A DNA stretch of 64,000 nt from a candidate division WS6 bacterium GW2011_GWF2_39_15 (GTDB lineage: Bacteria; Patescibacteriota; Dojkabacteria; SC72): positions 300,208 through 364,207 of the forward strand of contig LBWK01000001.1 in assembly GCA_000993565.1 (NCBI GenBank), given 5' to 3'. Each line of letters begins with the position of its first letter. Position 1 is the stretch's first letter. This document shows, piece by piece, positions 29,254 to 39,898 of this stretch. The position numbers and the translations under genes were made by a program. Under the pieces are notes generated by a model. The model saw nothing but the letters and a program-made list of their open reading frames with translations, was not told the origin of the DNA and searched no databases.

Positions 29254-29414
29254 ATCATAAAGGCTTTATTTATACACTATATTATACCAAATTATCCCAT
29301 AGTATTCCATTCTCTATATTATAACCTTTGATAGGGGATTCTGAGTATTGACAACAATAATCATTCTGTTTACTATGGATAAGAAAGTAATTTATGGGAT
29401 ACTCATATAATTAA

Positions 29415-29906
29415 ATGGAACCTGCCCGACAAAATATCTCTCAGTTAATAGTAAATGATGATGTTACACAGACAAAGTTCAATCAATTTGCAAAGGAACT
29501 TCAGGATTTAGGAGCATCAGAGAAAGAGATTAAAGAGATAGCCATGGGAGTTGCAAAGACTGCATCTAATCAGACGACAGCAAAAATCAGCCTTTTAATG
29601 GACGATAGCGACTGGAGTAAATGGAAAGCCTTTGTAGATTCAACTCCAACACCAAATGTTGCACAACAACTCATTATCATGAACAAATTCCTTGAAGATA
29701 GGACAGGCAAGAGCCTAGAGACATTGCATCTTGAAATTCTTGATTCATTACTTAAAGATACTCTTGATCAGATTCAAAAGAGAAGGGATATGGCTATTAA
29801 AGTATCCAAACTTTCTGACGAACAGATAGATACCGTTAATGAAGCTCTTGATAATGAGGAGTTTGATAAAGCTGATGATATATTAAATTCTACAAGTACT
29901 AATTAA
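29415..29906 (+). CDS. small acidic helical protein preceding the giant protein gene (1-nt spacer)
   Basis: ORF; predicted all-helical and acidic; no family recognised. Confidence 0.4.
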   Translation: MEPARQNISQLIVNDDVTQTKFNQFAKELQDLGASEKEIKEIAMGVAKTASNQTTAKISLLMDDSDWSKWKAFVDSTPTPNVAQQLIIMNKFLEDRTGKSLETLHLEILDSLLKDTLDQIQKRRDMAIKVSKLSDEQIDTVNEALDNEEFDKADDILNSTSTN

Positions 29907-29907
29907 A

Positions 29908-32900
29908 ATGGGACTTAACGCCGGTGGTATGCAAGAAATACATCCTGATATCCAGTCAGATAGAGAGTTAATAACCTCTGGTAAAGTTCCTCAGGGAACT
30001 GCTGAAGCTAATGACAAATTAAATACTCCAGTAGTAGATATTACAAAGACAACTGGTTATTATGGGAATGATTTAACAACCGATCCTCTCCCGCTTACTG
30101 CTGAAGCGACAGCAAAGATACTTAGAAGAGGTCCTGCACAAAATGAAGATAATGGAGAAACAGGCTTGAAAGCCGGCGAGGAAAGACCTAAAACTCAATC
30201 TGCTATTCCTGTAGCCAACGGATCAGCTTATGTCGAATCAGTTAGTCCTTCAACCCCTGCACAGCAGACACCAGACACCGAAGGACTTGATCAACTTAAT
30301 ACCCCCTTATATACGCTTACTGGAGGAGGAGAGACCACTTCGACTAATGTAACTACGCCAAATGCAACAGAAGGTAAAGCAGGTAAAAACGGTACTGATA
30401 CATCAGATGACTTAGTAGCAAAGCTAAGATCAATGTTGTCCCAGGCTGACAAAGATAAGCCTAAAGAACACACTATAGAAACACCTGTAGCCCAGGATCT
30501 CAATCAGGCAGTTACAGCTTTGGCTGCAGAAGTTGCTAAGGAACCTGAAAATAATTCAAAGAAGGAAGAGTTGAACGGCTTAAAGGAATTAAGTCAATCT
30601 GTAACGAACCTCTCACAACAGATAAACCAGGTGAAAATAGAAATCACAAATCAAGTTAATACTCAGGTTGCCCAAATTACTGCAAAGATGGAAGAATCTA
30701 AAGATAAGCTGGCAGGAACGGTAAACCACTATTATATGCAAGGGGGCTCAGTATTTCACGGGACAGTAGGAGCAGGTACACATATAGAAGTTACAAATAC
30801 GGCAAGTAATTTTAATACAGGAGCAGCAGGAATAAGCGTTAGAAATACAGCAGACCACGGAAGTACAATAAACAATGGCAATATTGTAGATGCAGGTGTT
30901 AATCTGGGTATACTAGATTTGAATGCAATGATGGAAGAAGCTGAAAATTTGGACAGGCTTGCAGACGAACCAGAAGCGCCAACTTCTCTAAGTGAGGCGG
31001 CAAGGGACACAGCCGATAAGGCGAGAGAGCTTACAGAGGATATAAAGACAAGAAAAACTGATCGAGTAACAGATCCGGCAGTTACACCTGATTCAAGTTC
31101 AACAACTCATCCACCCGTAATAAAACCTCAACCAAATGTAACACCGAACGATAATCCTCCTACACCTCCACAACCGGCAGTAGCAGTAACAGATGACAGT
31201 AGTGAGCATAAAGACACCGGAGTAACCCCAGAAGAGCAACCTACTTCCGATCCTAAGAAAGCAGCAGAGAATCTAGTAGGGCCATTGACTCCTGAAGAGT
31301 CACAGGAATTTGATAATGCGAATGAAAAGAAAGGTTTTCTCTTCAGCATAAAGAGAATGTTCAGCGGTGAAAACTGGAAGAGATGGGTACCAACAGTGAT
31401 AGGGTCGATCGCAGGTTCATTCGGGGTAAAACTGTTTGCAGGAGCAGCTCTATCAATGGGTCCAATTGGAACCGCATTACTCGGAGGTGCAATGGCTGGT
31501 TTTGCCATATATTCAGGATATAGAGCTATCAAGAACTTAAGTGAGGCAGCCAAGGCGGAAGGTAAATCTGTATGGCAGGTAATGGGCAACTTGGATTTTG
31601 TAAAAGGAGCCTTACTTGGAGGATTAATTTCTGGGGTAGGTAAAGCTTCAGCGAAGTTTATCCCTGGATTCGGTTCGCTTATGGCACTTGGACTTGAAGG
31701 AGGAACTTCGTGGCTATTTGAAAATCACCTTAACAAGAAACAGCAGGAATTAGTTAACAAATACATGGATACATACCAGGCACGCAGGTATGCAAATCTT
31801 AAGGATAAAGGATATGTCATTAGAGGTGCTGAAGGAGCACCTGCTGTAGGAATGGAATCCATACTTAAAGATATGACAAGTGCACCTTCAGAATCAGAAA
31901 AGAAGGTAGCAAAGAGAGCTGCACTTGCTTCCCTTATACATCTCTACAGCATAACTAAGGATGATGCCCATAAATTTGTTGAGTATACGATAAAGGAGAA
32001 CGGTGTCGATAAGGTGATTAAGGTTGATATTACACAAATTGCGATTGATGAAGCAGAAGGAAGTACAGAGAAATACAGAATGCTTCAACTTAAAGATACT
32101 GACAAGATTAATGTCGAGAAATTTATAGATACATTAGATACAGCCAAACTTACATCAGCGATTCAAGATGCATGGAACAAAACCGATGCAACTAAGAGGG
32201 CTGATATGGCTAAGGATCTTGTAAACCTCTTCGTTGGCTTGGAAGGCACAGAAGTAGAGAAGATTATGTCGGAAGAGAGAAAGAGCTATCTCTCATGGAT
32301 CAACTTCACAACTGGGTTACACTTTGGTATGGCGGCAGTAAATGTTGGATCCTCTCTTGCAGGAGCTTACGGAGCATTCAGAGACAATTTTGGTGTCAAT
32401 CATGATGCACAGGGAGTAAACACCTCAGATTCTCAACAAGCAACAGAAGATTATAGAAGTGCCCATCCAGAAGCCCCGCAGGCAGAAGTAGAGAGGGTAG
32501 TAAATGCTGAAGGCCACATAATTGATAAGGTAGATGTAGACGGAGGCGGCGTAGACTACTACGTCGACCAAACTACAAACCAATATGTTGTACTTTCTGG
32601 GACCGGTGCTGAAAGCGTATTTGAAATACAACACCCGGATCTTGGACAGGTAACCGCAACTGAAGTAACTACCCACGGAGATACAGGCATTGTTGCCACT
32701 TTGAGTGATAATGCAGGAAAAGTTGTTGGTGTAACATATGCCGACTCTACTGGACACATTGGAGTTTTGGATATGAACGGCGTAGGTCAGCATCTATTTG
32801 CAGGTGGAGGAGAGAGCCCAATACACGGAGTAACTCTCACTGATATACAGCCAAATGGTGATGCAACATTAGTTTTAGACAATGTAAACCATCAAGTAAA

Positions 32901-35259
32901 TCTAGGAAATCTTAACCTTGAACTTGACGGATCATCAACATCAGAGGTTCAGACACAGATTGGTGTATTGATGCCACAGAGTGGAGATTCAGTAAATAGT
33001 ATGCTTCACCATACAATTGAACAGGCTAAAACTCTGAATCCTAATTTGCAACAATATGACAATCTGGAACTTGAGAGAATGCTTTACCAGGAAGGAAGTG
33101 GTATCCATGCTAATGACGCCGCGATAAGGCAGGAGTTAGGTATCAGGGGAGCACTTGATGTATCAGAGGAATGGAGCTGGAAAGATTCACCTACAATTAT
33201 GTCCTGGCTAACGGAGCTTAACGGTGGGAATACTGTGGAACTAGGTTCACAGACAGTTACAGGCGGAACACCTGGTGTAAACACTTTCTTTGAAGGGCCG
33301 GAAGTTTCCGCATTTGACGTTGCAAATGCAGGATCTGCACCTGGAGAATCAGGTGGCTTTATCAGTGTAATGGATAGAATCGTAGAGCCATCACTTCTTG
33401 CTTTGGTAGGTGGTGTGATGGCAGGTGTATTTGCTTCACAACCTAAGAGTGGCGGTATTTCAAGGCAGAACGATGTAAATACCGCAACGGCAAAAGCCGG
33501 TGATGATAAGACAAAAGATGACAAAGGCAAGGGAGTAAGCAAAGAAACCTCAGTTGAATTAGCAGCAGGAGAAGGAGCTGTTGAAAAGAAAGTCGGAGGG
33601 CCAAAGGATGTAATCGTAAATCAGATACTTAAGAACGTTATACCTAATAAATATGTTGAGATAGCTGGAAAGAAATATATTCAGGTAGAGAGTGCACCTG
33701 GGCAATGGAAAGAAAAAGATGTTAAAGACGCCCAGCCTATATCAGCTGAAGACCTTGCAGATCTACTCTTGAATCAAACGGATAAGAATCTAAGAAGTAA
33801 AGATCTATCTGGAATACTTAATAGTGCGGCCATCAAAGGTGGGGCAACTATAAAATTAACGGAGGAAGATGGTTCTGAGACAACATATAAGAAGTCCGTA
33901 AAAGACAATGAACCAGGAAAGAGGCCTGTCAAATTAGTATCATGGATTAACACAGAGACAAAGAAGAGTAGCGATGTTCTAACTAGCGATGCACTTGCGA
34001 CCAAGATCCTTGATTTGAAGGAAAAGACAGTTACAGTATCAACGCCATCTGGAAGTCCACAAGGAGGACCAAGTGCTGAAGCTGGTGGAGACGAAACAAA
34101 GAAAGAGGGTGAGGTAGATAAGGAAAAAGCTCTGAAAGAAACTTTAAACAATATATTAGAAACTCTTCATATTGATAAAAAGCAAGTTGTTATTAATGGT
34201 GAAAAATACGAATATAACAAGGATGCCAAAATATGGATAAAGTCAGGTGCATTGTTCAACAAGAATCTAATTCAGAAAGGCTCTGATAATCTTAGTGACC
34301 AGCAAGTTGTTGAATCCTGGATTAAACTTGAGTCAAAACAGCTTGGGAAGGATTTGGAAACAACTCTTGGGAACGTCGACAGTGGGAAAAAGATAAATGT
34401 TATTGACGAAATATTTAGTAAGACACCGACCTCAGTATTGAAACAAGCAAATTACAATGGCGATGTTTATACTTATGATTCAGAAAAAGATGTATGGAAT
34501 AAGGATAAAAAGAGTAAAACGGCAAGTCCAAAGAGTATCACAGGATCTGGAATGACAACCTATATAGCGAATGGTACGGCCAACGCACTCCCAAGCAAAA
34601 AAGAAAATCTGATTTGGAAATCAGATACCAGAGCTTTTAATGACAAAGATTTGGCATTAGAAATTGCAAAACTGAGGGTAAGCACTAAGGAAGTAAAGTC
34701 TGAAACAAAATCCGCAGACAGTAATGCAGAAGGGGAAAAGAACAAGGAAGAAAAAGAGAAGAAAGAAAGTAAGGGCAGAAAACTCCTTAAGACAGCGCTT
34801 ATAGTATTAGCCGTAGCAGGAGGTATTACCTCATATGCAGTTGGTGGTTGGCAAGTAGCAGCAATTACATCAGGCATCAGCTGGTTGACGACACTTGGTC
34901 TAAATATCGGAGAAGGTTTGGCACAAAAAGGTATAAGCAAGAGACAAGCCGAAGCCGCTGAACTAGCAGAAAAGCTTAAAAACGAGAAACGAGCACTGAA
35001 GCCTGATGAAGAAAAGTCGTTGGAGGAAAGGAAGAGGAAGGACGAAAGGGCTAGAAATATTATTTATTGGCTCAAATTTGCCAGTAAAGTCACGGGTGCC
35101 CTATCAATATCATCTGGAGCTTCTGCACTGTTAGGTTTAGTGATTGATAAGTTCCAGATTAACATAAAAGGAATAATCGGAGGTGCTTTCAATAGACCAG
35201 AGATAAACCAAGTTCCTTTTGAACAAACAATAGACGAATCACTTAACTTAGGAAAGTAA
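29908..35259 (+). CDS. giant (1783 aa) membrane-anchored protein with low-complexity regions, Gly-rich TM segments and a 55-aa module shared with the 35741..37288 product
   Basis: Continuous ORF. TM-like segments at about aa 490-540, 560-600 and 1640-1720. Shared module at aa 275-330 (YYMQGGSVFHGTVGAGTHIEVTNTASNFNTGAAGISVRNTADHGSTINNGNI). Degenerate G-x-Y-x-Y...W-x-K repeats at about aa 1200-1500. Confidence 0.6.
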   Translation: MGLNAGGMQEIHPDIQSDRELITSGKVPQGTAEANDKLNTPVVDITKTTGYYGNDLTTDPLPLTAEATAKILRRGPAQNEDNGETGLKAGEERPKTQSAIPVANGSAYVESVSPSTPAQQTPDTEGLDQLNTPLYTLTGGGETTSTNVTTPNATEGKAGKNGTDTSDDLVAKLRSMLSQADKDKPKEHTIETPVAQDLNQAVTALAAEVAKEPENNSKKEELNGLKELSQSVTNLSQQINQVKIEITNQVNTQVAQITAKMEESKDKLAGTVNHYYMQGGSVFHGTVGAGTHIEVTNTASNFNTGAAGISVRNTADHGSTINNGNIVDAGVNLGILDLNAMMEEAENLDRLADEPEAPTSLSEAARDTADKARELTEDIKTRKTDRVTDPAVTPDSSSTTHPPVIKPQPNVTPNDNPPTPPQPAVAVTDDSSEHKDTGVTPEEQPTSDPKKAAENLVGPLTPEESQEFDNANEKKGFLFSIKRMFSGENWKRWVPTVIGSIAGSFGVKLFAGAALSMGPIGTALLGGAMAGFAIYSGYRAIKNLSEAAKAEGKSVWQVMGNLDFVKGALLGGLISGVGKASAKFIPGFGSLMALGLEGGTSWLFENHLNKKQQELVNKYMDTYQARRYANLKDKGYVIRGAEGAPAVGMESILKDMTSAPSESEKKVAKRAALASLIHLYSITKDDAHKFVEYTIKENGVDKVIKVDITQIAIDEAEGSTEKYRMLQLKDTDKINVEKFIDTLDTAKLTSAIQDAWNKTDATKRADMAKDLVNLFVGLEGTEVEKIMSEERKSYLSWINFTTGLHFGMAAVNVGSSLAGAYGAFRDNFGVNHDAQGVNTSDSQQATEDYRSAHPEAPQAEVERVVNAEGHIIDKVDVDGGGVDYYVDQTTNQYVVLSGTGAESVFEIQHPDLGQVTATEVTTHGDTGIVATLSDNAGKVVGVTYADSTGHIGVLDMNGVGQHLFAGGGESPIHGVTLTDIQPNGDATLVLDNVNHQVNLGNLNLELDGSSTSEVQTQIGVLMPQSGDSVNSMLHHTIEQAKTLNPNLQQYDNLELERMLYQEGSGIHANDAAIRQELGIRGALDVSEEWSWKDSPTIMSWLTELNGGNTVELGSQTVTGGTPGVNTFFEGPEVSAFDVANAGSAPGESGGFISVMDRIVEPSLLALVGGVMAGVFASQPKSGGISRQNDVNTATAKAGDDKTKDDKGKGVSKETSVELAAGEGAVEKKVGGPKDVIVNQILKNVIPNKYVEIAGKKYIQVESAPGQWKEKDVKDAQPISAEDLADLLLNQTDKNLRSKDLSGILNSAAIKGGATIKLTEEDGSETTYKKSVKDNEPGKRPVKLVSWINTETKKSSDVLTSDALATKILDLKEKTVTVSTPSGSPQGGPSAEAGGDETKKEGEVDKEKALKETLNNILETLHIDKKQVVINGEKYEYNKDAKIWIKSGALFNKNLIQKGSDNLSDQQVVESWIKLESKQLGKDLETTLGNVDSGKKINVIDEIFSKTPTSVLKQANYNGDVYTYDSEKDVWNKDKKSKTASPKSITGSGMTTYIANGTANALPSKKENLIWKSDTRAFNDKDLALEIAKLRVSTKEVKSETKSADSNAEGEKNKEEKEKKESKGRKLLKTALIVLAVAGGITSYAVGGWQVAAITSGISWLTTLGLNIGEGLAQKGISKRQAEAAELAEKLKNEKRALKPDEEKSLEERKRKDERARNIIYWLKFASKVTGALSISSGASALLGLVIDKFQINIKGIIGGAFNRPEINQVPFEQTIDESLNLGK
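30730..30887 (+). repeat. copy A of a ~158-bp inverted repeat (in-frame, inside the giant gene)
   Basis: About 90% nucleotide identity to the reverse complement of 37091-37246. Confidence 0.8.
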
Positions 35260-35285
35260 AAATTAAACTATAAAAGACTTGAGAT

Positions 35286-35729
35286 ATGGTAGAGGAAATT
35301 GCAAAACTAATAGATCAGTTAAAAACTTACGGCCTTGATAATGCAAAACTATCAGCTCTATACCAGTTGGCAGTAGAAGATTTTCTTGAGGAGGTTCAAA
35401 CAGACCTAACAGAAATCTCCGATAGTGACCTAACCGACATAGAGTCATCACTTAAAGACATAACCATTGATAGCTTAGCAGAAGGTAATAATGATCCTTT
35501 CATGACGACTTTACGAAAACTATATGGAGCTCAAGCAGAACCGAGATTCTTGAAATTCCTTAAGGAATACTTTGAAGATGCTGTTAAGCAAGCCCAATCA
35601 GCAAAAGAGCTACTAGAGAAATATAAAGCTAATGATCCTGAAGTTCTAAAGAAGTTAGAGGAAGCAAAAATGAACGAGGATTATGATACGATGGAGGCTA
35701 TTATCAAGAGCCTTAATCCTGGAGAATAG
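35286..35729 (+). CDS. small acidic helical protein following the giant protein gene
   Basis: ORF; pI acidic; no family recognised. Confidence 0.4.
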   Translation: MVEEIAKLIDQLKTYGLDNAKLSALYQLAVEDFLEEVQTDLTEISDSDLTDIESSLKDITIDSLAEGNNDPFMTTLRKLYGAQAEPRFLKFLKEYFEDAVKQAQSAKELLEKYKANDPEVLKKLEEAKMNEDYDTMEAIIKSLNPGE

Positions 35730-35740
35730 TCTTAAAAGAG

Positions 35741-37288
35741 TTATTCTCTAACCCTTACAAACTCACTTTGTGATACAAAATGTATCCCGGTATCTGCTTG
35801 AAACACCTTTCTTCCTTCTTCAAACCACTTACCTTCAGGTGGATTGATCGAAGTCAGAATACCCAAGTATACAAAAGCTAAAAGCTGACATCCTGCCGGA
35901 GATTTATCAAACTTCTGCAACTTTGTATTTACTTTTGCTTTCTGTAATTCATTAAGTTCATCAGTTTCAAGAGGGGAGAGAAGATTGAATGAGCCTTTTT
36001 CTTCAATCATTATTCTAAATACTGAATTGAACTGCATATTCATATTACTAGCCAACCAATGTATTTTTTCTGAAGGTGTAAAATCGTCCCTCCAACCATC
36101 TGGGATTCTATCTTTTCGGATACCACCTTCCATTGGATCCACATAGTGAATTACATATCCTCCAAAGGCTTCATCTTTCACAGGAGTACTCAATATCGCA
36201 CGCGCATGTCCGCCAATATGACGATCCTGGGAAGAATAGTAGATACCAACCGGAATTCCCCATCTGTCTCCAAGCTTTGCCATATCAGTTACATTTATCT
36301 CAGTCTCTCTATTGGCATAGCTATCTAGACGGGGAACATCATCCTGTGCTCTTGGCCAGACATCATGATCAGGAAGTTCATCCGTTGTAATGTGGAATTC
36401 GGCTGGCCTACCAGGTTCCCTTGTTTCATGAACGTTTAGGTCATCGATATAAGGAGGTACAAAACCATGCAAAAGGTACTCTCTAACATCGGAACCTTTC
36501 TGGGACAAGATTTTCCTGAACATATCTTCAAGATAATTCGCAACGGTCAGGTTCCTATTTACCCAATGCTGAACCAGTGAGGCATCCATAATGGGTTCCT
36601 CAAGTAGAACAGCTGGAACCTCAACCATTAACCGGCTATGATCTTCCTGCTCTCGGATTATTAGGATAAATAAAGGGTTTTCTTTAGTATCAGAATCCAG
36701 TTCATCTTCTTTTGTCACAACAATATCAACGACGTCTTCATCCTCTTTTGTTTCAATATCAGGGTAAATACTAACCATGTCTTCAAGGTTTTCACCTAAG
36801 GCTTCAGTGAGTTGCATTTGATTTTTTACAATTTGTATTTGGTCATCAATGCTATCTATTTCCTCGCTTATGTCTAAATCTCCGTGATCTGTACTCGTAT
36901 GTGGAGCTGTTTCTTCTCCTTTTGGTCGCAGCGGCTCATCAGATTTTGAAGGAATTGTGGATACCGGAGTTGCACTGTCTACTTTCTGAGGTTCTGGGGT
37001 TGAGGTCTTCTTTTCTGTATCATCAAAGGTAGCAGCTTCTTCCATTGTAGTATCCTGTGTCAAAGTTTTCAGACTAGTCTTTGTGACGGCAATATTGCCA
37101 TTGTTTATTGTGCTTCCATGGTCTGCTGTATTTCTAACGCCTATTCCGACTGCTCCTGTATTGAAATTACTTGCCATATTTGTAACTTCTATATGGGAAT
37201 CTGATCCTACTGTTCCGTGAAATACTGAGCCCCCATGCATATAATATTCATTTGAAGATTCAACACTTTTCTTCCTTTGACCATTCAT
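35741..37288 (-). CDS. 515-aa protein with the shared N-terminal module (aa 15-70) and an unrelated C-terminal body
   Basis: N-terminal YYMHGGSVFHGTVGSDSHIEVTNMASNFNTGAVGIGVRNTADHGSTINNGNI, followed by an acidic linker and a ~300-aa C-terminal domain. Confidence 0.5.
   Translation of the reverse strand: MNGQRKKSVESSNEYYMHGGSVFHGTVGSDSHIEVTNMASNFNTGAVGIGVRNTADHGSTINNGNIAVTKTSLKTLTQDTTMEEAATFDDTEKKTSTPEPQKVDSATPVSTIPSKSDEPLRPKGEETAPHTSTDHGDLDISEEIDSIDDQIQIVKNQMQLTEALGENLEDMVSIYPDIETKEDEDVVDIVVTKEDELDSDTKENPLFILIIREQEDHSRLMVEVPAVLLEEPIMDASLVQHWVNRNLTVANYLEDMFRKILSQKGSDVREYLLHGFVPPYIDDLNVHETREPGRPAEFHITTDELPDHDVWPRAQDDVPRLDSYANRETEINVTDMAKLGDRWGIPVGIYYSSQDRHIGGHARAILSTPVKDEAFGGYVIHYVDPMEGGIRKDRIPDGWRDDFTPSEKIHWLASNMNMQFNSVFRIMIEEKGSFNLLSPLETDELNELQKAKVNTKLQKFDKSPAGCQLLAFVYLGILTSINPPEGKWFEEGRKVFQADTGIHFVSQSEFVRVRE
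37091..37246 (-). repeat. copy B of the ~158-bp inverted repeat (in-frame, 5' end of the 515-aa gene)
   Basis: Reverse complement aligns to 30730-30887 with ~13 mismatches across ~156-158 nt. Confidence 0.8.
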
Positions 37289-37333
37289 GACTTTATATGT
37301 GTGATGTATTTTTTAAGTATAACATAACGGAGA

Positions 37334-38644
37334 TTATTTCAGCGGATGCTTCTCCTTATGCGTCTCCTGTGCATACTTATCTGATGCATGCACATATCTT
37401 GTTGTTGTATTGAGACTTTCATGACCAAGCAATACCTGTATAGCAGCAGGACTCGCACCATTTTCAGCCAAATATGTTGCAAAACCATGCCTTAAACTAT
37501 GTGCAGAAGTAGGGACTAAAATGCCTAATCTACGCCTATAATTAGCAATACACTCCTGAAAATAGTTTGTAGATAATCGCGCATTTACATGTTTAGCCCT
37601 AGTCCCGCGAAGCGGAGTAAACAGGGCAGGGGAGTCAAACTTATCCAAGTATCTTGATTTCCTATATTCCTCAATGGTTTTCACATACCTCCACCTATCG
37701 TTTGCATCACTTATGAGATCAACAATATCCTTATTATCCTCAGATGTTTCACGATCAAGTATAAAAGCATGTCTCAGCCTTATCTCTAAATATCTATCCA
37801 ACCAATCCATTGCCCGGTCAGTCATATAAACGAACCTCTCTTTCTTTCCTTTACCCTTTATAAACAGCTTCCCGTCAAGGTTTATCTGATCCAGATTGAG
37901 ATTAATAAGCTCCGAGATACGCATACCAGTTGAAAAAAGCAACTCCATCATTGCACGATTACGCACTCCGACATCATGATCGTGCTCAAACTCAACCGGT
38001 GACTCAATCAGTCTAACTAAATCTTCCAACTCAGCCACCTGTGATTTCTTCTTGTCCGCCTTAATTAATTTAATTGCATCAGGAGGAATTGGAACCTCCA
38101 AATCTCTATCAATTCTGAATTTCAAATAACTTCTGATTGCACTCAACATACGATTGACGCTTCGGGCATCCAAACCGGTATCAGATCGACTGGAGACATT
38201 GGCAGGCTTACCGTGTACCCCAAGACTTCCGAACACCTTGCGATATACATCCTCGAGAAATTTTCCTTTAAACTCGGTACTTTCCGTCTCACTCACAGGT
38301 CTCAATACAGTACCCTCAGGCACTTCGACGGTTCTAGACCCCTTGTAGCCCTTTGAGGTATCTTCCTGTGCTGTATCAACCTTTCTTAAGTATTTCTCCC
38401 TTATTTTATCCAAATCCTTCAAATGATCACCATTTCTAAGGTAGCCCTTGTACAAAGTCACCTGTTCTTTATTCAACTTCTCAAAGGAATACGAATTAGC
38501 ATCAAGAAACACTGCAAAAATTGAAAGATCCCGTGCGTAATTAAGTACTGTCTGCATACTATAATTGTTATTCTGAAGCTCTAAAAGAAAGGAGTCCTGA
38601 TCAGGAAGCTTCGGAATTACTGTGTTCATATTTTTAGAAGACAT
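37334..38644 (-). CDS. tyrosine site-specific recombinase (XerC/XerD-like integrase family) with a ~100-aa insertion
   Basis: C-terminal catalytic region AHSLRHGFATYLAENGASPAAIQVLLGHESLNTTTRYVHA (H-x-x-R ... Y) and an N-terminal core-binding-like helix NYARDLSIFAVFL; 436 aa against ~300 for canonical Xer. Confidence 0.8.
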   Translation of the reverse strand: MSSKNMNTVIPKLPDQDSFLLELQNNNYSMQTVLNYARDLSIFAVFLDANSYSFEKLNKEQVTLYKGYLRNGDHLKDLDKIREKYLRKVDTAQEDTSKGYKGSRTVEVPEGTVLRPVSETESTEFKGKFLEDVYRKVFGSLGVHGKPANVSSRSDTGLDARSVNRMLSAIRSYLKFRIDRDLEVPIPPDAIKLIKADKKKSQVAELEDLVRLIESPVEFEHDHDVGVRNRAMMELLFSTGMRISELINLNLDQINLDGKLFIKGKGKKERFVYMTDRAMDWLDRYLEIRLRHAFILDRETSEDNKDIVDLISDANDRWRYVKTIEEYRKSRYLDKFDSPALFTPLRGTRAKHVNARLSTNYFQECIANYRRRLGILVPTSAHSLRHGFATYLAENGASPAAIQVLLGHESLNTTTRYVHASDKYAQETHKEKHPLK

Positions 38645-39082
38645 GGGAGTAGGGGGGTGAAATTTTAGTATTTAGGATAGTAGGGATATAGGAGGTATTA
38701 ATAACATAATTTACTATCTTTCTATCCAGATCTTCATACATAATAAATAATAGCATCTATTGTGAATATATAAAAATAGCTTAAATAGAGCACTTCTCTG
38801 TTCTCCTCTATGCTCTACCGCATATAAGAGCGATTATACTCGGTAGTATATTACCTGATATATACTACTCTGTAAAGGGAAGACCCATCATATTAAAGGT
38901 GTGCACACATTCATATAAATAAATATTAAGACCCTTTATTAATAAGTACTAATAATAAAGATTATTCATTGATAGAAGGAGGTACTACACTGTAAAGATA
39001 TCCACAGATTTACTATAAGATATTAATCACTATGGGATAGCTAGCACTCCCCCTCCCCTTTGCTTATCGTAACATGGAAAAA

Positions 39083-39898
39083 TTAAGAATAATAAATTCC
39101 CAAAATAAACGTAAGGACTAATAGAAACACGTATTGGATCAGATCAAAGTTCCTAACCATATTACGCTGTTTCTTGGTTATGTACTCTAGAGAGATGAAC
39201 CCCCCTACTGTTGGCCCCAAAGCTATAACCTCGTGCCTTTGTGAAACAATCGCCAGTGCTATCACAGAGGTAGAAAGGAAAAGTAACGTTAGAGCGGTAT
39301 ATCCCCCTATCCTCTCCCAGCTTATGTCCATATGCCTTAAGTGGAAAAAGATAAGACCCGTGTAAGTAAGCAACAGAATAGCCATGGTAATAAAGATATT
39401 AAAATTGGCATCCATTATCCCAACAGTTATAAAGAAGGTGCATATAAGAGTTCCAATAAATGAAACCGTTCTTGCCGCCTGAACGAGGGGAATTTCTTTC
39501 TTGATTGTTGAAACGTTAAATATATTAGCCATCAAAAATGACATATATATACCGCCAAACAGAATTGCCAAGATACCAATGAGAATAAGAACTTCATAAA
39601 CCCTACCCACCCTTCTGAAGAAGAAGAGCTCAAGAAAGATCATTTCTGCAAAAATAAAAAGACTCGTCTGCGGAACAATGTATAGAAGAGTGTGTAGCGT
39701 AACCTGGAACCTAAGTGCCCATATTAATCCAATATATGAAAAGATAAAGTACCCTACTCCTCTCAAAATAATCGTGACAGGATTAACAATAACAGATTGC
39801 TGTGTGATTTTAAAAAATAATATGGAGAGTGAGATAACTAATGCAAGAGTCAAGATTCTACCTTTTTTTACATTGTCTATGTTTCCCTGTATTTCCAT
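39083..39898 (-). CDS. polytopic membrane protein, unknown function
   Basis: About 8 hydrophobic helices. Confidence 0.4.
   Translation of the reverse strand: MEIQGNIDNVKKGRILTLALVISLSILFFKITQQSVIVNPVTIILRGVGYFIFSYIGLIWALRFQVTLHTLLYIVPQTSLFIFAEMIFLELFFFRRVGRVYEVLILIGILAILFGGIYMSFLMANIFNVSTIKKEIPLVQAARTVSFIGTLICTFFITVGIMDANFNIFITMAILLLTYTGLIFFHLRHMDISWERIGGYTALTLLFLSTSVIALAIVSQRHEVIALGPTVGGFISLEYITKKQRNMVRNFDLIQYVFLLVLTFILGIYYS

Follow-up and report, generated by a model that had tools for sequence, protein, structure and literature searches.

In polymorphic toxin loci of the CdiA-CT, Rhs, and MafB types, orphan C-terminal cassettes start with a short copy of the large gene and continue into an unrelated, enzyme-like part. 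Another way of joining new bodies to existing N termini is provided by gene-altering inversions such as those of hsdS shufflons with PsrA/CreX-type invertases, the R64 shufflon, and the G segment of phage Mu (PMC9881135). According to Milman et al. 2023 (PMC9881135), four sequence attributes are enriched at verified inversion loci: the inverted repeat is long, the two coding sequences or operons lie close together, the genes are arranged tail to tail with the repeats near their 5' ends, and the asymmetry is strong. Xer-family enzymes mediate such inversions in small genomes, as is the case for XerC of Ureaplasma (PMC3599477). In Ureaplasma parvum, where mba and UU172 are the genes concerned, chimeric genes are made by inversion, XerC has been shown to bind short inverted repeats, and both orientations have been observed (PMC3047005, PMC3599477).

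A locus in a groundwater Dojkabacteria (WS6) genome resembles these systems in part. As in the orphan toxin cassettes, the gene for a 515-aa protein starts with a copied stretch of the adjoining giant gene and has an enzyme-like C-terminal part; it differs from them in that the copy is inverted and derives from the coding region for the N-terminal quarter of the giant protein and that no immunity-like gene follows. With the shufflon-type loci it has in common tail-to-tail coding sequences, 5' inverted repeats, an adjacent tyrosine recombinase, and a swap that would be in frame, and here too one partner lacks nearly everything upstream of the repeat. Unlike in those loci, a swap would exchange unrelated bodies (1455 aa of a membrane protein for a 447-aa soluble putative enzyme), the arms are 10% diverged with no identical tract, the Xer is a conserved one with its own dif-like site, and a single orientation is seen in junction-spanning assemblies. 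The likeness to Ureaplasma parvum lies in the reduced genome, the Xer-family recombinase, and the N-terminal paralog in neighboring genes, whereas the WS6 repeat has no recognizable site and no second orientation. The features of the locus are given below by their positions in the window, that is, the whole 64,000-nucleotide stretch of DNA that was analyzed.

29348-29376: best promoter-like site, TTGACA-17-TACTAT, upstream of the 163-aa gene.
29415..29906, plus strand: small acidic protein of 163 aa, encoded by the operon's leading gene, whose stop codon directly adjoins the start of the giant gene; the protein is 44% identical to the 160-aa protein at the same position in the related locus L010.
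29908..35259, plus strand: giant 1783-aa membrane protein (ORF, hydropathy, composition).
30723..30886, plus strand: left arm of the repeat, module copy of the 1783-aa protein (aa 273-328); 90% complementary in the repeat search.
30931..30943, plus strand: exact match of 13 nt in register, ATGGAAGAAGCTG, which lies 44 nt beyond the arm; partner at 37033-37045, minus strand.
35286..35729, plus strand: small acidic protein of 147 aa, downstream of the giant gene and inside the repeat-bounded segment (ORF).
35741..37288, minus strand: chimeric 515-aa protein with a 12-aa leader, the module, an acidic linker (about aa 69-185), and a body of ~330 aa (ORF, alignment with the homologs P0003-P0006).
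35741..36733, minus strand: body of the 515-aa protein (alignment of the five-protein family).
Minus strand: invariant body residues His361 (36206-36208), Asp384 (36137-36139), Gln458 (35915-35917), and Cys467 (35888-35890).
37090..37253, minus strand: right arm of the repeat, module copy of the 515-aa protein (aa 13-68) (repeat search, codon comparison).
37334..38644, minus strand: Xer-type tyrosine recombinase of 436 aa (PF00589 at 2e-33).
38817..38844, minus strand: dif-like 28-bp quasi-palindrome ACCGAGTATAA-TCGCTC-TTATATGCGGT, 170 nt upstream of xer (comparison of 10 related loci).

BLASTP of the 1783-aa ORF against the 515-aa ORF gave one significant match (aa 261-349 and 1-89, 62% identity, E = 3e-29; the runner-up had E = 0.089), and within it the core of the module, aa 273-328 in the first protein and 13-68 in the second, is identical at 46 of 56 positions (82%). 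These comparisons bear out the sequence-only reading of this DNA, which had described a Gly/Thr/Asn-rich module common to two otherwise unrelated proteins and, after each copy, an acidic linker with the motif MEEA. That motif follows either copy after 15 residues, in register, and the 13-mer encoding it occurs at two sites in the 64-kb window (30931, plus strand, and 37033, minus strand). The interval to which the module had been assigned, 35741-37288, is the 515-aa gene alone; it fits one copy, and the partner copy lies outside it, at 30723-30886. At the DNA level the pair consists of a single ungapped inverted repeat, 30723-30886 and 37090-37253, which is 164 nt long, has 16 mismatches (90% identity) and an arm spacing of 6203 nt, and was the sole long inverted repeat returned by a repeat search of the 64-kb window. 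A tblastn search of the window likewise located these two module copies alone. The host genes of the arms stand tail to tail and adjoin the tyrosine recombinase gene, the codon phase is the same in both arms, and DNA identity beyond the repeat falls to background, about 0.2 to 0.4, at either edge. This DNA-level repeat, and what follows from it, had been overlooked when the module was first described.

Searches elsewhere placed the module outside the described families, as had been proposed. No Pfam family matched either copy at E up to 10, no PDB chain matched significantly (best E = 0.95), NCBIfam had nothing relevant for the two full-length host proteins, and PADLOC and PHROGs had nothing for the 515-aa, 1783-aa, or 163-aa proteins or for P0004. 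An exhaustive phmmer search of 1.84 billion (1.84e9) representatives returned the query itself and one body homolog with no further module copy, a negative that is not absolute, since this library is incomplete and did not return the 1783-aa paralog, for which local phmmer gives E = 4e-22. Word-index homology searches with the 515-aa and 1783-aa queries are weak negatives, as they gave the query alone and missed the paralog in the same genome. Peptide-pattern scans found no module relatives in JGI metagenome or IMG/VR contigs, an exact-pattern scan of JGI metagenome contigs gave 0 matches to the repeat core, and the module is absent from the 1739-aa homolog of the giant protein in HGW-Dojkabacteria-1. 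The term "conserved" that had been applied to the module thus holds between the two copies in one genome but not beyond them. As far as these sequence comparisons reach, the module is not a widespread domain and is local to one groundwater Dojkabacteria (WS6) genome. With regard to the short beta-solenoid unit that had been suggested for the module, an internal periodicity of ~17 aa was not significant (61/300 and 79/300 shuffles), and TRF found nothing.

Over 56 codons the module copies differ by 9 synonymous and 11 nonsynonymous changes (Nei-Gojobori), which corresponds to a dS of 0.29, a dN of 0.09, and a dN/dS of 0.31 (Fisher p = 0.02). With a dS of 0.29 the copies are therefore not new, in agreement with what had been argued from their silent differences; the accompanying claim of purifying selection on the peptide is upheld in a weaker form, as selection appears modest and, with two copies, the signal is marginal and not assignable to a lineage. 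The 16 mismatches between the arms are evenly spread, the longest identical run being 22 nt. A template/variable pair of a diversity-generating retroelement was considered and rejected, since the mismatches cover all four bases in both directions and are not adenine specific; no reverse transcriptase was present among the genes called in about 5-64 kb of the window. The dS inside the repeat is far below the saturation found just outside it, yet a 13-nt in-register match occurs further out. Given this low dS between saturated flanks, together with the outlying match, the repeat core may have been homogenized by gene conversion or may be constrained at the DNA level, which a purely protein-level account does not predict.

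The 1783-aa protein is laid out as a polar arm (aa 1-272), the module, an acidic Pro/Thr linker (aa 329-470), and hydrophobic segments from about aa 497 onward, the first of which is preceded by a Lys/Arg-rich stretch. No Pfam family was found for it; its residues 450-1138 are 36% identical to the 1739-aa protein of HGW-Dojkabacteria-1. In that genome the operon (160aa-1739aa-148aa) converges straight on xer, with neither a 515-type gene nor the repeat. The 515-aa gene sits between a conserved giant-protein operon and a conserved xer that abut directly in a relative. The 147-aa gene and the convergent 515-aa gene have their ends 11 nt apart; the 147-aa product has homologs at the same position in the related loci L010 (35%) and L005 (30%) and two marginal PADLOC matches (E = 0.001 and 0.005). 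Inspection by eye revealed no apparent signal peptide at the N terminus of the 1783-aa or the 515-aa protein, and from these N termini, the positive-inside rule, and hydropathy we infer that both module copies lie on the cytoplasmic side. The earlier suggestion that the module might be a tag for targeting or export at the N terminus is unlikely in view of its start at residue 273 of the 1783-aa protein versus residue 13 of the 515-aa protein.

The body of the 515-aa protein belongs to a family of five proteins, all in Dojkabacteria-type genomes or contigs. The other four members (P0003-P0006) are stand-alone proteins of 328-338 aa, each beginning near residue 185 of the 515-aa protein, so that module and linker form an add-on to the body. 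Three of these homologs were looked up, and their genomic surroundings are unrelated. Homology between the two acidic linkers was not significant (196/1000 shuffles), and about 115 linker codons of the 515-aa gene are not copied from the giant gene. Hydropathy indicated no membrane segment in the 515-aa protein except the buried helix that carries Cys467.

On balance, we lean toward the view that the module is a lineage-specific inverted partial gene duplication that probably serves as a common cytoplasmic binding handle. A coding piece of the N-terminal arm of the giant protein is present again, reverse-complemented, at the 5' end of the neighboring gene. The duplicated piece measures at least 164 bp and was probably about 256 bp at first, as the 13-nt match beyond the repeat arm suggests an original duplication of at least about 256 nt. 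The 515-aa gene would have been made by fusion of a 12-codon leader, the module with an acidic disordered linker of ~115 aa, and the ~330-aa body. Since both copies appear to be cytoplasmic and in frame under mild purifying selection, the module is most probably a common binding handle, which may act in binding or assembly on a flexible tether. Such a handle could bring the putative enzyme to the partner or site of the giant protein's N-terminal arm or to the arm itself by like-with-like pairing. The locus would then be a clean case of a new chimeric gene arising in an ORFan-rich, fast-evolving CPR region, and should it be a docking handle, the shared segment connects two proteins whose functions are unknown.

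The shared segment could instead be a functionless relic, with a piece of the giant gene left at the 5' end of the 515-aa gene or with the real start of that gene at the internal Met158 or Met171. Both methionines lie just upstream of residue 185, from about which the 328- to 338-aa homologs align, the module is confined to one genome lineage, and the evidence of selection, weak at p = 0.02, could stem from the giant-protein copy alone. However, the 185 upstream codons hold 0 stops in frame, compared with 13 and 19 in the other two frames, and about 115 of them are not giant derived; the acidic, Ser/Thr/Pro-rich composition of the 515-aa linker matches that of the giant protein's linker; and the dN/dS of 0.31 stands against roughly 0.5 or more expected if one copy drifts, a difference that is not statistically resolvable. 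We regard a relic as unlikely. Far less probable still is a genuine wider domain or sorting tag that the searches overlooked. The word-index searches did miss even the in-genome paralog, the exhaustive library does lack the 1783-aa protein, and the giant protein of L010 has a module-like, Gly/Asn/Thr-rich patch in the corresponding position. That patch, however, is no better than shuffled sequence (250/500 shuffles score as well) and was rejected; no Pfam, NCBIfam, or significant PDB match appeared at E up to 10, nothing was found in the 1.84e9 representatives, JGI metagenomes, or IMG/VR, and the module sits at residue 273 in one protein versus 13 in the other. An orphan cassette of a polymorphic toxin locus was also set aside: the giant protein has no delivery-family match, and the gene that comes next encodes the 147-aa protein of the convergent operon and is kept together with the giant gene where genomes have no 515-type gene.

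A gene-altering programmed inversion of the shufflon type would have recombination between the arms, by the adjacent Xer or by RecA, flip 30887-37089. After the flip, the 515-aa body would follow on from the promoter, the 163-aa gene, and residues 1 to 272+ of the giant protein, and the giant membrane body would follow on from xer and the 12-aa leader. All four attributes of PMC9881135 are found here: a long inverted repeat, an 11-nt distance, a tail-to-tail arrangement with 5' repeats, and asymmetry, the 515-aa gene having 12 codons before the repeat and the giant gene 272 codons plus an upstream gene and a promoter-like site. A tyrosine recombinase gene lies 45 nt away, the arms are in one frame so that a swap stays in frame, the low dS in the repeat relative to its flanks hints at past exchange between the copies, and Ureaplasma XerC is a precedent for Xer-mediated switches in small genomes (PMC3599477). 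However, the presence of the recombinase may be explained by ruvCAB synteny that is kept in 10 Dojkabacteria genomes without the repeat, and no comparable inverted repeat lies near xer in seven related loci. The Xer has its own conserved dif-like site, whereas the repeat arms have no dif-like motif (PWM -29 versus +49) and no significant dyad core (66/500 shuffles as good), and no other recombinase or reverse transcriptase was called in about 5-64 kb of the window. The even spread of the 16 mismatches, with no identical run above 22 nt, gives no sign of recent exchange and makes for a poor RecA substrate, and whereas known systems swap homologous alternatives, the bodies here are of unrelated sizes and types. 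Furthermore, 6-7 junction-spanning contigs per anchor (the 147-aa gene inside the segment, the 163-aa gene and xer outside it), from at least two sequencing runs, have one arrangement throughout, and the k127 and Logan assemblies run straight through both repeat arms in the same orientation. We consider such an inversion distinctly improbable, and we give a similarly small chance to the 6.2-kb segment sitting at the replication terminus as an invertible element that flips rarely or under certain conditions and that, via Xer on a non-dif site or RecA, exchanges the 272-residue arm, along with its promoter and the 163-aa gene upstream, between the giant protein and the putative thiol hydrolase. 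If the inversion were true, phase-variation-type coding switches would extend to the CPR, and the Candidate Phyla Radiation would have its first described gene-altering inversion, one that swaps unrelated bodies rather than homologous variants.

Under the preferred duplication and fusion, the cargo of the handle would be the 515-aa body, for which an enzymatic, clan-CD-like peptidase role had been tentatively proposed from the order of a His and a later Cys. The catalytic part of that idea gains from the alignment, in which His361 and Cys467, along with Asp384 and Gln458, are invariant across the five family sequences (the 515-aa protein and its four homologs). The assignment to clan CD does not, as no Pfam or PDB profile matched and the His-then-Cys order is a trait common to several clans and not specific to CD. 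Judged from these residues, the body is a putative thiol hydrolase or transferase. The His-before-Cys order is shared with clan CE (Ulp1/SENP, YopJ), the permuted papain-like LRAT/PLAAT proteins, and clan CD, and the order His-Asp-Gln-Cys bears more resemblance to clan CE or to a permuted papain-like fold, which we take as a lead only. The body family differs from all of these in having no Pfam or PDB sequence match, and hhalign gave it a probability of 0.15% against a Ulp1 plus SENP1 profile and of 0.05% against a PLA2G16 profile, in both cases with shallow profiles (5 versus 2 and 5 versus 1 sequences, respectively). The Ulp1, SENP1, and PLA2G16 sequences were verified against PDB chains 1EUV, 2IYC, and 4FA0. 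AlphaFold2 reached a pLDDT of 32.7 for the 515-aa protein from single sequence and of 33.0 for the body with the 5-sequence alignment; in the low-confidence model, the His lies on a strand and the Cys at the start of a hydrophobic helix.

The xer gene lies 45 nt upstream of the 515-aa gene in the same orientation, and its product is matched by XerC/XerD/XerA models at 5e-52 to 6e-41, below their equivalog cutoffs. The gene order yebC-ruvC-ruvA-ruvB-271aa-xer is kept in 10 Dojkabacteria loci. The dif-like site occurs at the same place with 0-3 mismatches in 10/10 related loci, or in 11 Dojkabacteria genomes counting the source, and is unique in the window, where it scores 49 bits with the PWM and the repeat arms score -29; Rfam had no match on 37200-39200. 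In single-recombinase dimer-resolution systems of the XerS/difSL type the site adjoins the recombinase gene. The arrangement here recalls XerS/difSL (PMC2965235) in that a single Xer gene has a conserved 11+6+11 dif-like site nearby, where gene orientation and GC skew switch; this comparison concerns the neighboring recombinase and not the module, and the resolution role is putative here. Just beyond xer, the giant-protein operons differ between genomes, and both the conserved 28-bp dif-like site by Xer and these variable operons may be of broader use.

BLASTP comparison of the 515-aa chimeric protein (UT34_C0001G0335) with the 1783-aa giant membrane protein of the same Dojkabacteria (WS6) genome, GW2011_GWF2_39_15 (G0333), gave one significant match, between residues 261 to 349 of the giant protein and residues 1 to 89 of the shorter one (E = 3e-29), and nothing further under E = 0.09. 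The core of this match (residues 273 to 328 and 13 to 68) is identical at 46 of 56 positions and is followed in both proteins by an acidic Ser/Thr/Pro-rich linker of ~115 to 140 residues, with "MEEA" in register 15 residues past the core. The sequence-only reading, which described a module common to two otherwise unrelated proteins and followed by an acidic linker containing this motif, was therefore correct. It did not notice that the copies also form an inverted repeat at the DNA level. The main features of the locus are as follows.

29348-29376, + strand, promoter-like site
29908-35259, + strand, 1783-aa giant membrane protein
30723-30886 and 37090-37253, arms of the inverted repeat
35741-37288, − strand, 515-aa chimeric protein (C-terminal body at 35741-36733)
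38817-38844, − strand, 28-bp quasi-palindrome

On the + strand the promoter-like site precedes three genes, for a 163-aa protein, the giant protein, and a 147-aa protein, in that order. The − strand carries xer (436 aa) with the 515-aa gene 45 nt downstream. The two gene sets lie tail-to-tail, 11 nt separating the end of the 515-aa gene from the 147-aa gene; upstream of xer are genes for a 271-aa membrane protein, ruvB, ruvA, ruvC, and yebC. Among the genes called in ~5 to 64 kb of the window, xer is the sole recombinase gene and none encodes a reverse transcriptase. The two repeat arms lie on opposite sides of the convergence point.

The repeat is a single ungapped match of 164 nt with 16 mismatches (90% identity), its arms separated by 6203 nt; it is the sole long inverted repeat within the 64 kb, and the window holds only these two copies of the module. 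Identity drops to background beyond both edges. A 13-mer, ATGGAAGAAGCTG, is nevertheless repeated in register 44 nt past the arm, at these two sites of the window only, and the start codon of the 515-aa ORF aligns, still in register, with the Met261 codon of the giant ORF, so that the duplicated piece was probably ~256 nt long originally. Within 30887-30943 and 37033-37089, the 44 nt (15 codons) between the 90% repeat and the exact 13-nt "MEEA" match are ~32% identical without an indel, a sharply more diverged patch inside an apparent single duplicated unit. The 56 core codons show 9 synonymous and 11 nonsynonymous differences (dS 0.29, dN 0.09, ratio 0.31, Fisher p = 0.02). By these values the copies are, as had been claimed, not recent, and the purifying selection claimed along with this amounts to a modest constraint on the peptide. 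Synonymous divergence in the core is much below the near-saturation directly outside it, which suggests either more recent copying or gene conversion confined to the core or a constraint at the DNA level.

A profile search recovered four relatives of the C-terminal body, P0003 to P0006, of 328 to 338 aa. Their counterpart in the 515-aa protein starts at about residue 185, so that only the 515-aa gene carries the N-terminal addition made up of the 12-aa leader, module, and linker. P0004 and P0005, the two with source names, are both from Dojkabacteria, and the gene neighborhoods of P0003, P0004, and P0005 are unrelated. The five proteins form a previously unannotated family without a Pfam match (loci L013 to L016 besides the window), in which the window's member is only 25 to 27% identical to the others. 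His361, Asp384, Gln458, and Cys467 are invariant in all five, upholding the His-before-Cys order first seen in the 515-aa body, as are the motifs GGHA, DPM, NLL, and LQxxD...CQ. A low-confidence AlphaFold2 model places the His on a strand and the Cys where a hydrophobic helix begins. A thiol hydrolase or transferase in which His precedes Cys would fit these features. We take two resemblances as leads: the His-Asp-Gln-Cys order recalls clan CE, and the "NCQ" motif is more reminiscent of permuted papain-like (LRAT/PLAAT) enzymes than of the clan CD peptidases suggested earlier. The family profile matched no PDB sequence and gave probabilities of 0.15% against Ulp1 and SENP1 and 0.05% against PLA2G16, the sequences of which were checked against PDB chains.

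The giant protein has a 1739-aa homolog in HGW-Dojkabacteria-1 (36% identity over residues 450 to 1138), flanked by homologs of the 163-aa and 147-aa proteins. That operon converges straight on xer, with neither a 515-type gene nor the repeat, and a Gly/Asn/Thr-rich patch at a similar place in the N-terminal arm resembles the module no better than shuffled sequence does. In other relatives, xer is followed by giant-protein operons of unrelated kinds. The 515-aa gene therefore looks like a lineage-specific insertion and fusion at a hypervariable spot. The region past xer differs wholly between the four Dojkabacteria genomes compared, three of which encode a giant protein there; homologs of the 163-aa/1783-aa/147-aa operon are recognizable in HGW-Dojkabacteria-1 (L010) only, L005 having just the 147-aa homolog.

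Region just past xer in four related Dojkabacteria loci
L003, 11495-21212: giant protein of 1755 aa, flanked by small proteins
L004, 11370-19728: giant protein of 1171 aa, flanked by small proteins
L010, 11398-17573: giant protein of 1739 aa, flanked by small proteins
L005, 4578-6775: 330-aa membrane protein in place of the giant

The recombinase scores as XerC/XerD/XerA-like, and the yebC-ruvC-ruvA-ruvB-271aa-xer block is kept in all ten Dojkabacteria loci retrieved (52 to 77% identity); none of the seven scanned for repeats has a comparable inverted repeat. The 28-bp quasi-palindrome, ACCGAGTATAA-TCGCTC-TTATATGCGGT, lies ~170 nt upstream of xer, occurs once in the window, and gave no hit in Rfam. 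With 0 to 3 mismatches it is present in 11 of 11 Dojkabacteria genomes, at the same position in L003 to L012, and varies mainly in its central six bases. An 11 + 6 + 11 layout with inner ATAA/TTAT is the architecture of classical dif, and the element is a candidate dif site beside its Xer gene. Gene orientation and cumulative GC skew change sign at the xer locus (~35.7 to 38.8 kb), as in three relatives (L003, L004, and L010, at ~10 to 12 kb), which fits a replication terminus there. The intergenic region 38645-39082 is, at 438 nt, unusually long for a compact genome; besides the dif-like site it holds a G-rich stretch, GGGGAGGGGGAGTGCT, also present in the closest relatives.

A known kind of event, partial duplication with gene fusion at a hypervariable locus, accounts for the feature. 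We propose that an inverted partial duplication would have created the chimeric 515-aa gene and that the module may serve as a shared binding or assembly handle; taken as a whole, we rate this statement slightly above even. The gene layout also carries the textbook signature of an active programmed inversion between the arms that alters both genes: a tyrosine recombinase gene adjoins the locus, and all four attributes enriched at verified gene-altering inversions are present (Milman et al.; PMC9881135). Such inversions are performed in Ureaplasma by Xer-family enzymes (PMC3599477). However, this recombinase belongs to a block that is kept where the repeat is absent and has a dif-like site of its own, whereas the arms contain no dif-like sequence (PWM −29 versus +49), and their dyad elements do not exceed chance. 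Mismatches (16) are distributed evenly along the arms and leave no identical run longer than 22 nt; recent exchange is not apparent, and the substrate for RecA would be poor. The parts that would be swapped are unrelated, one being a multi-pass membrane body of 1455 aa and the other a putative enzyme that is soluble; the inversion systems known to us swap homologous variants. Searches for contigs across the junctions started from one gene within the segment (147 aa) and two beyond it (163-aa gene and xer). They yielded 6 to 7 such contigs from at least two sequencing runs, all in one arrangement, and the k127 and Logan assemblies pass straight through both arms. We consider inversion distinctly unlikely; if true, it would raise the interest of the locus.

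As to the duplicated module itself, the 185-codon extension is free of in-frame stops, whereas the remaining frames have 13 and 19, and ~115 of its codons were not copied from the giant gene; it is therefore very probably translated. Neither N-terminus resembles a signal peptide by eye, and the first hydrophobic segment of the giant protein (~aa 497) follows a Lys/Arg-rich stretch, which by the positive-inside rule would put the N-terminal arm, and with it the module, on the cytoplasmic side. The module is short, rich in Gly/Thr/Asn, and strand-prone, sits on a long acidic tether, and has been kept similar in two neighboring proteins; it is best read as a shared handle, which would bring the putative enzyme to a partner or place reached by the giant protein's arm. 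That the copy is a functionless relic seems rather improbable to us. Membership in a wider domain family missed by the searches is very improbable: neither module copy matched a Pfam family at E values up to 10, the best match of either to a solved chain had E = 0.95, none of Pfam, NCBIfam, PADLOC, and PHROGs gave a relevant match to the full proteins, exhaustive phmmer with the 515-aa query against 1.84 billion representatives returned itself and one body homolog only, and no module relatives turned up when JGI metagenome contigs and IMG/VR were scanned by peptide pattern. The 1783-aa paralog was itself missed for this query by word-index searches and the exhaustive library (local phmmer, E = 4e-22), so that the negatives are strong but not absolute; word-index search also missed the 36% identical HGW-Dojkabacteria-1 homolog, and both kinds of negative need care for short modules and low-complexity giant proteins. 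Of the "novel conserved module" proposed earlier, what stands is a real, undescribed sequence limited to one genome lineage; no evidence supports a conserved domain.

Three short contigs that match the window at 100% identity (L022, 29177-30684; L023, 29262-30681; L024, 29262-30672) all stop 4 to 16 nt short of ATG 30688, the Met261 codon of the giant ORF that aligns with the 515-aa start. Their ends could mark the onset of strain heterogeneity precisely where the duplicated unit begins on its left, or the three could be repeat assemblies of one sample that share a coverage gap.
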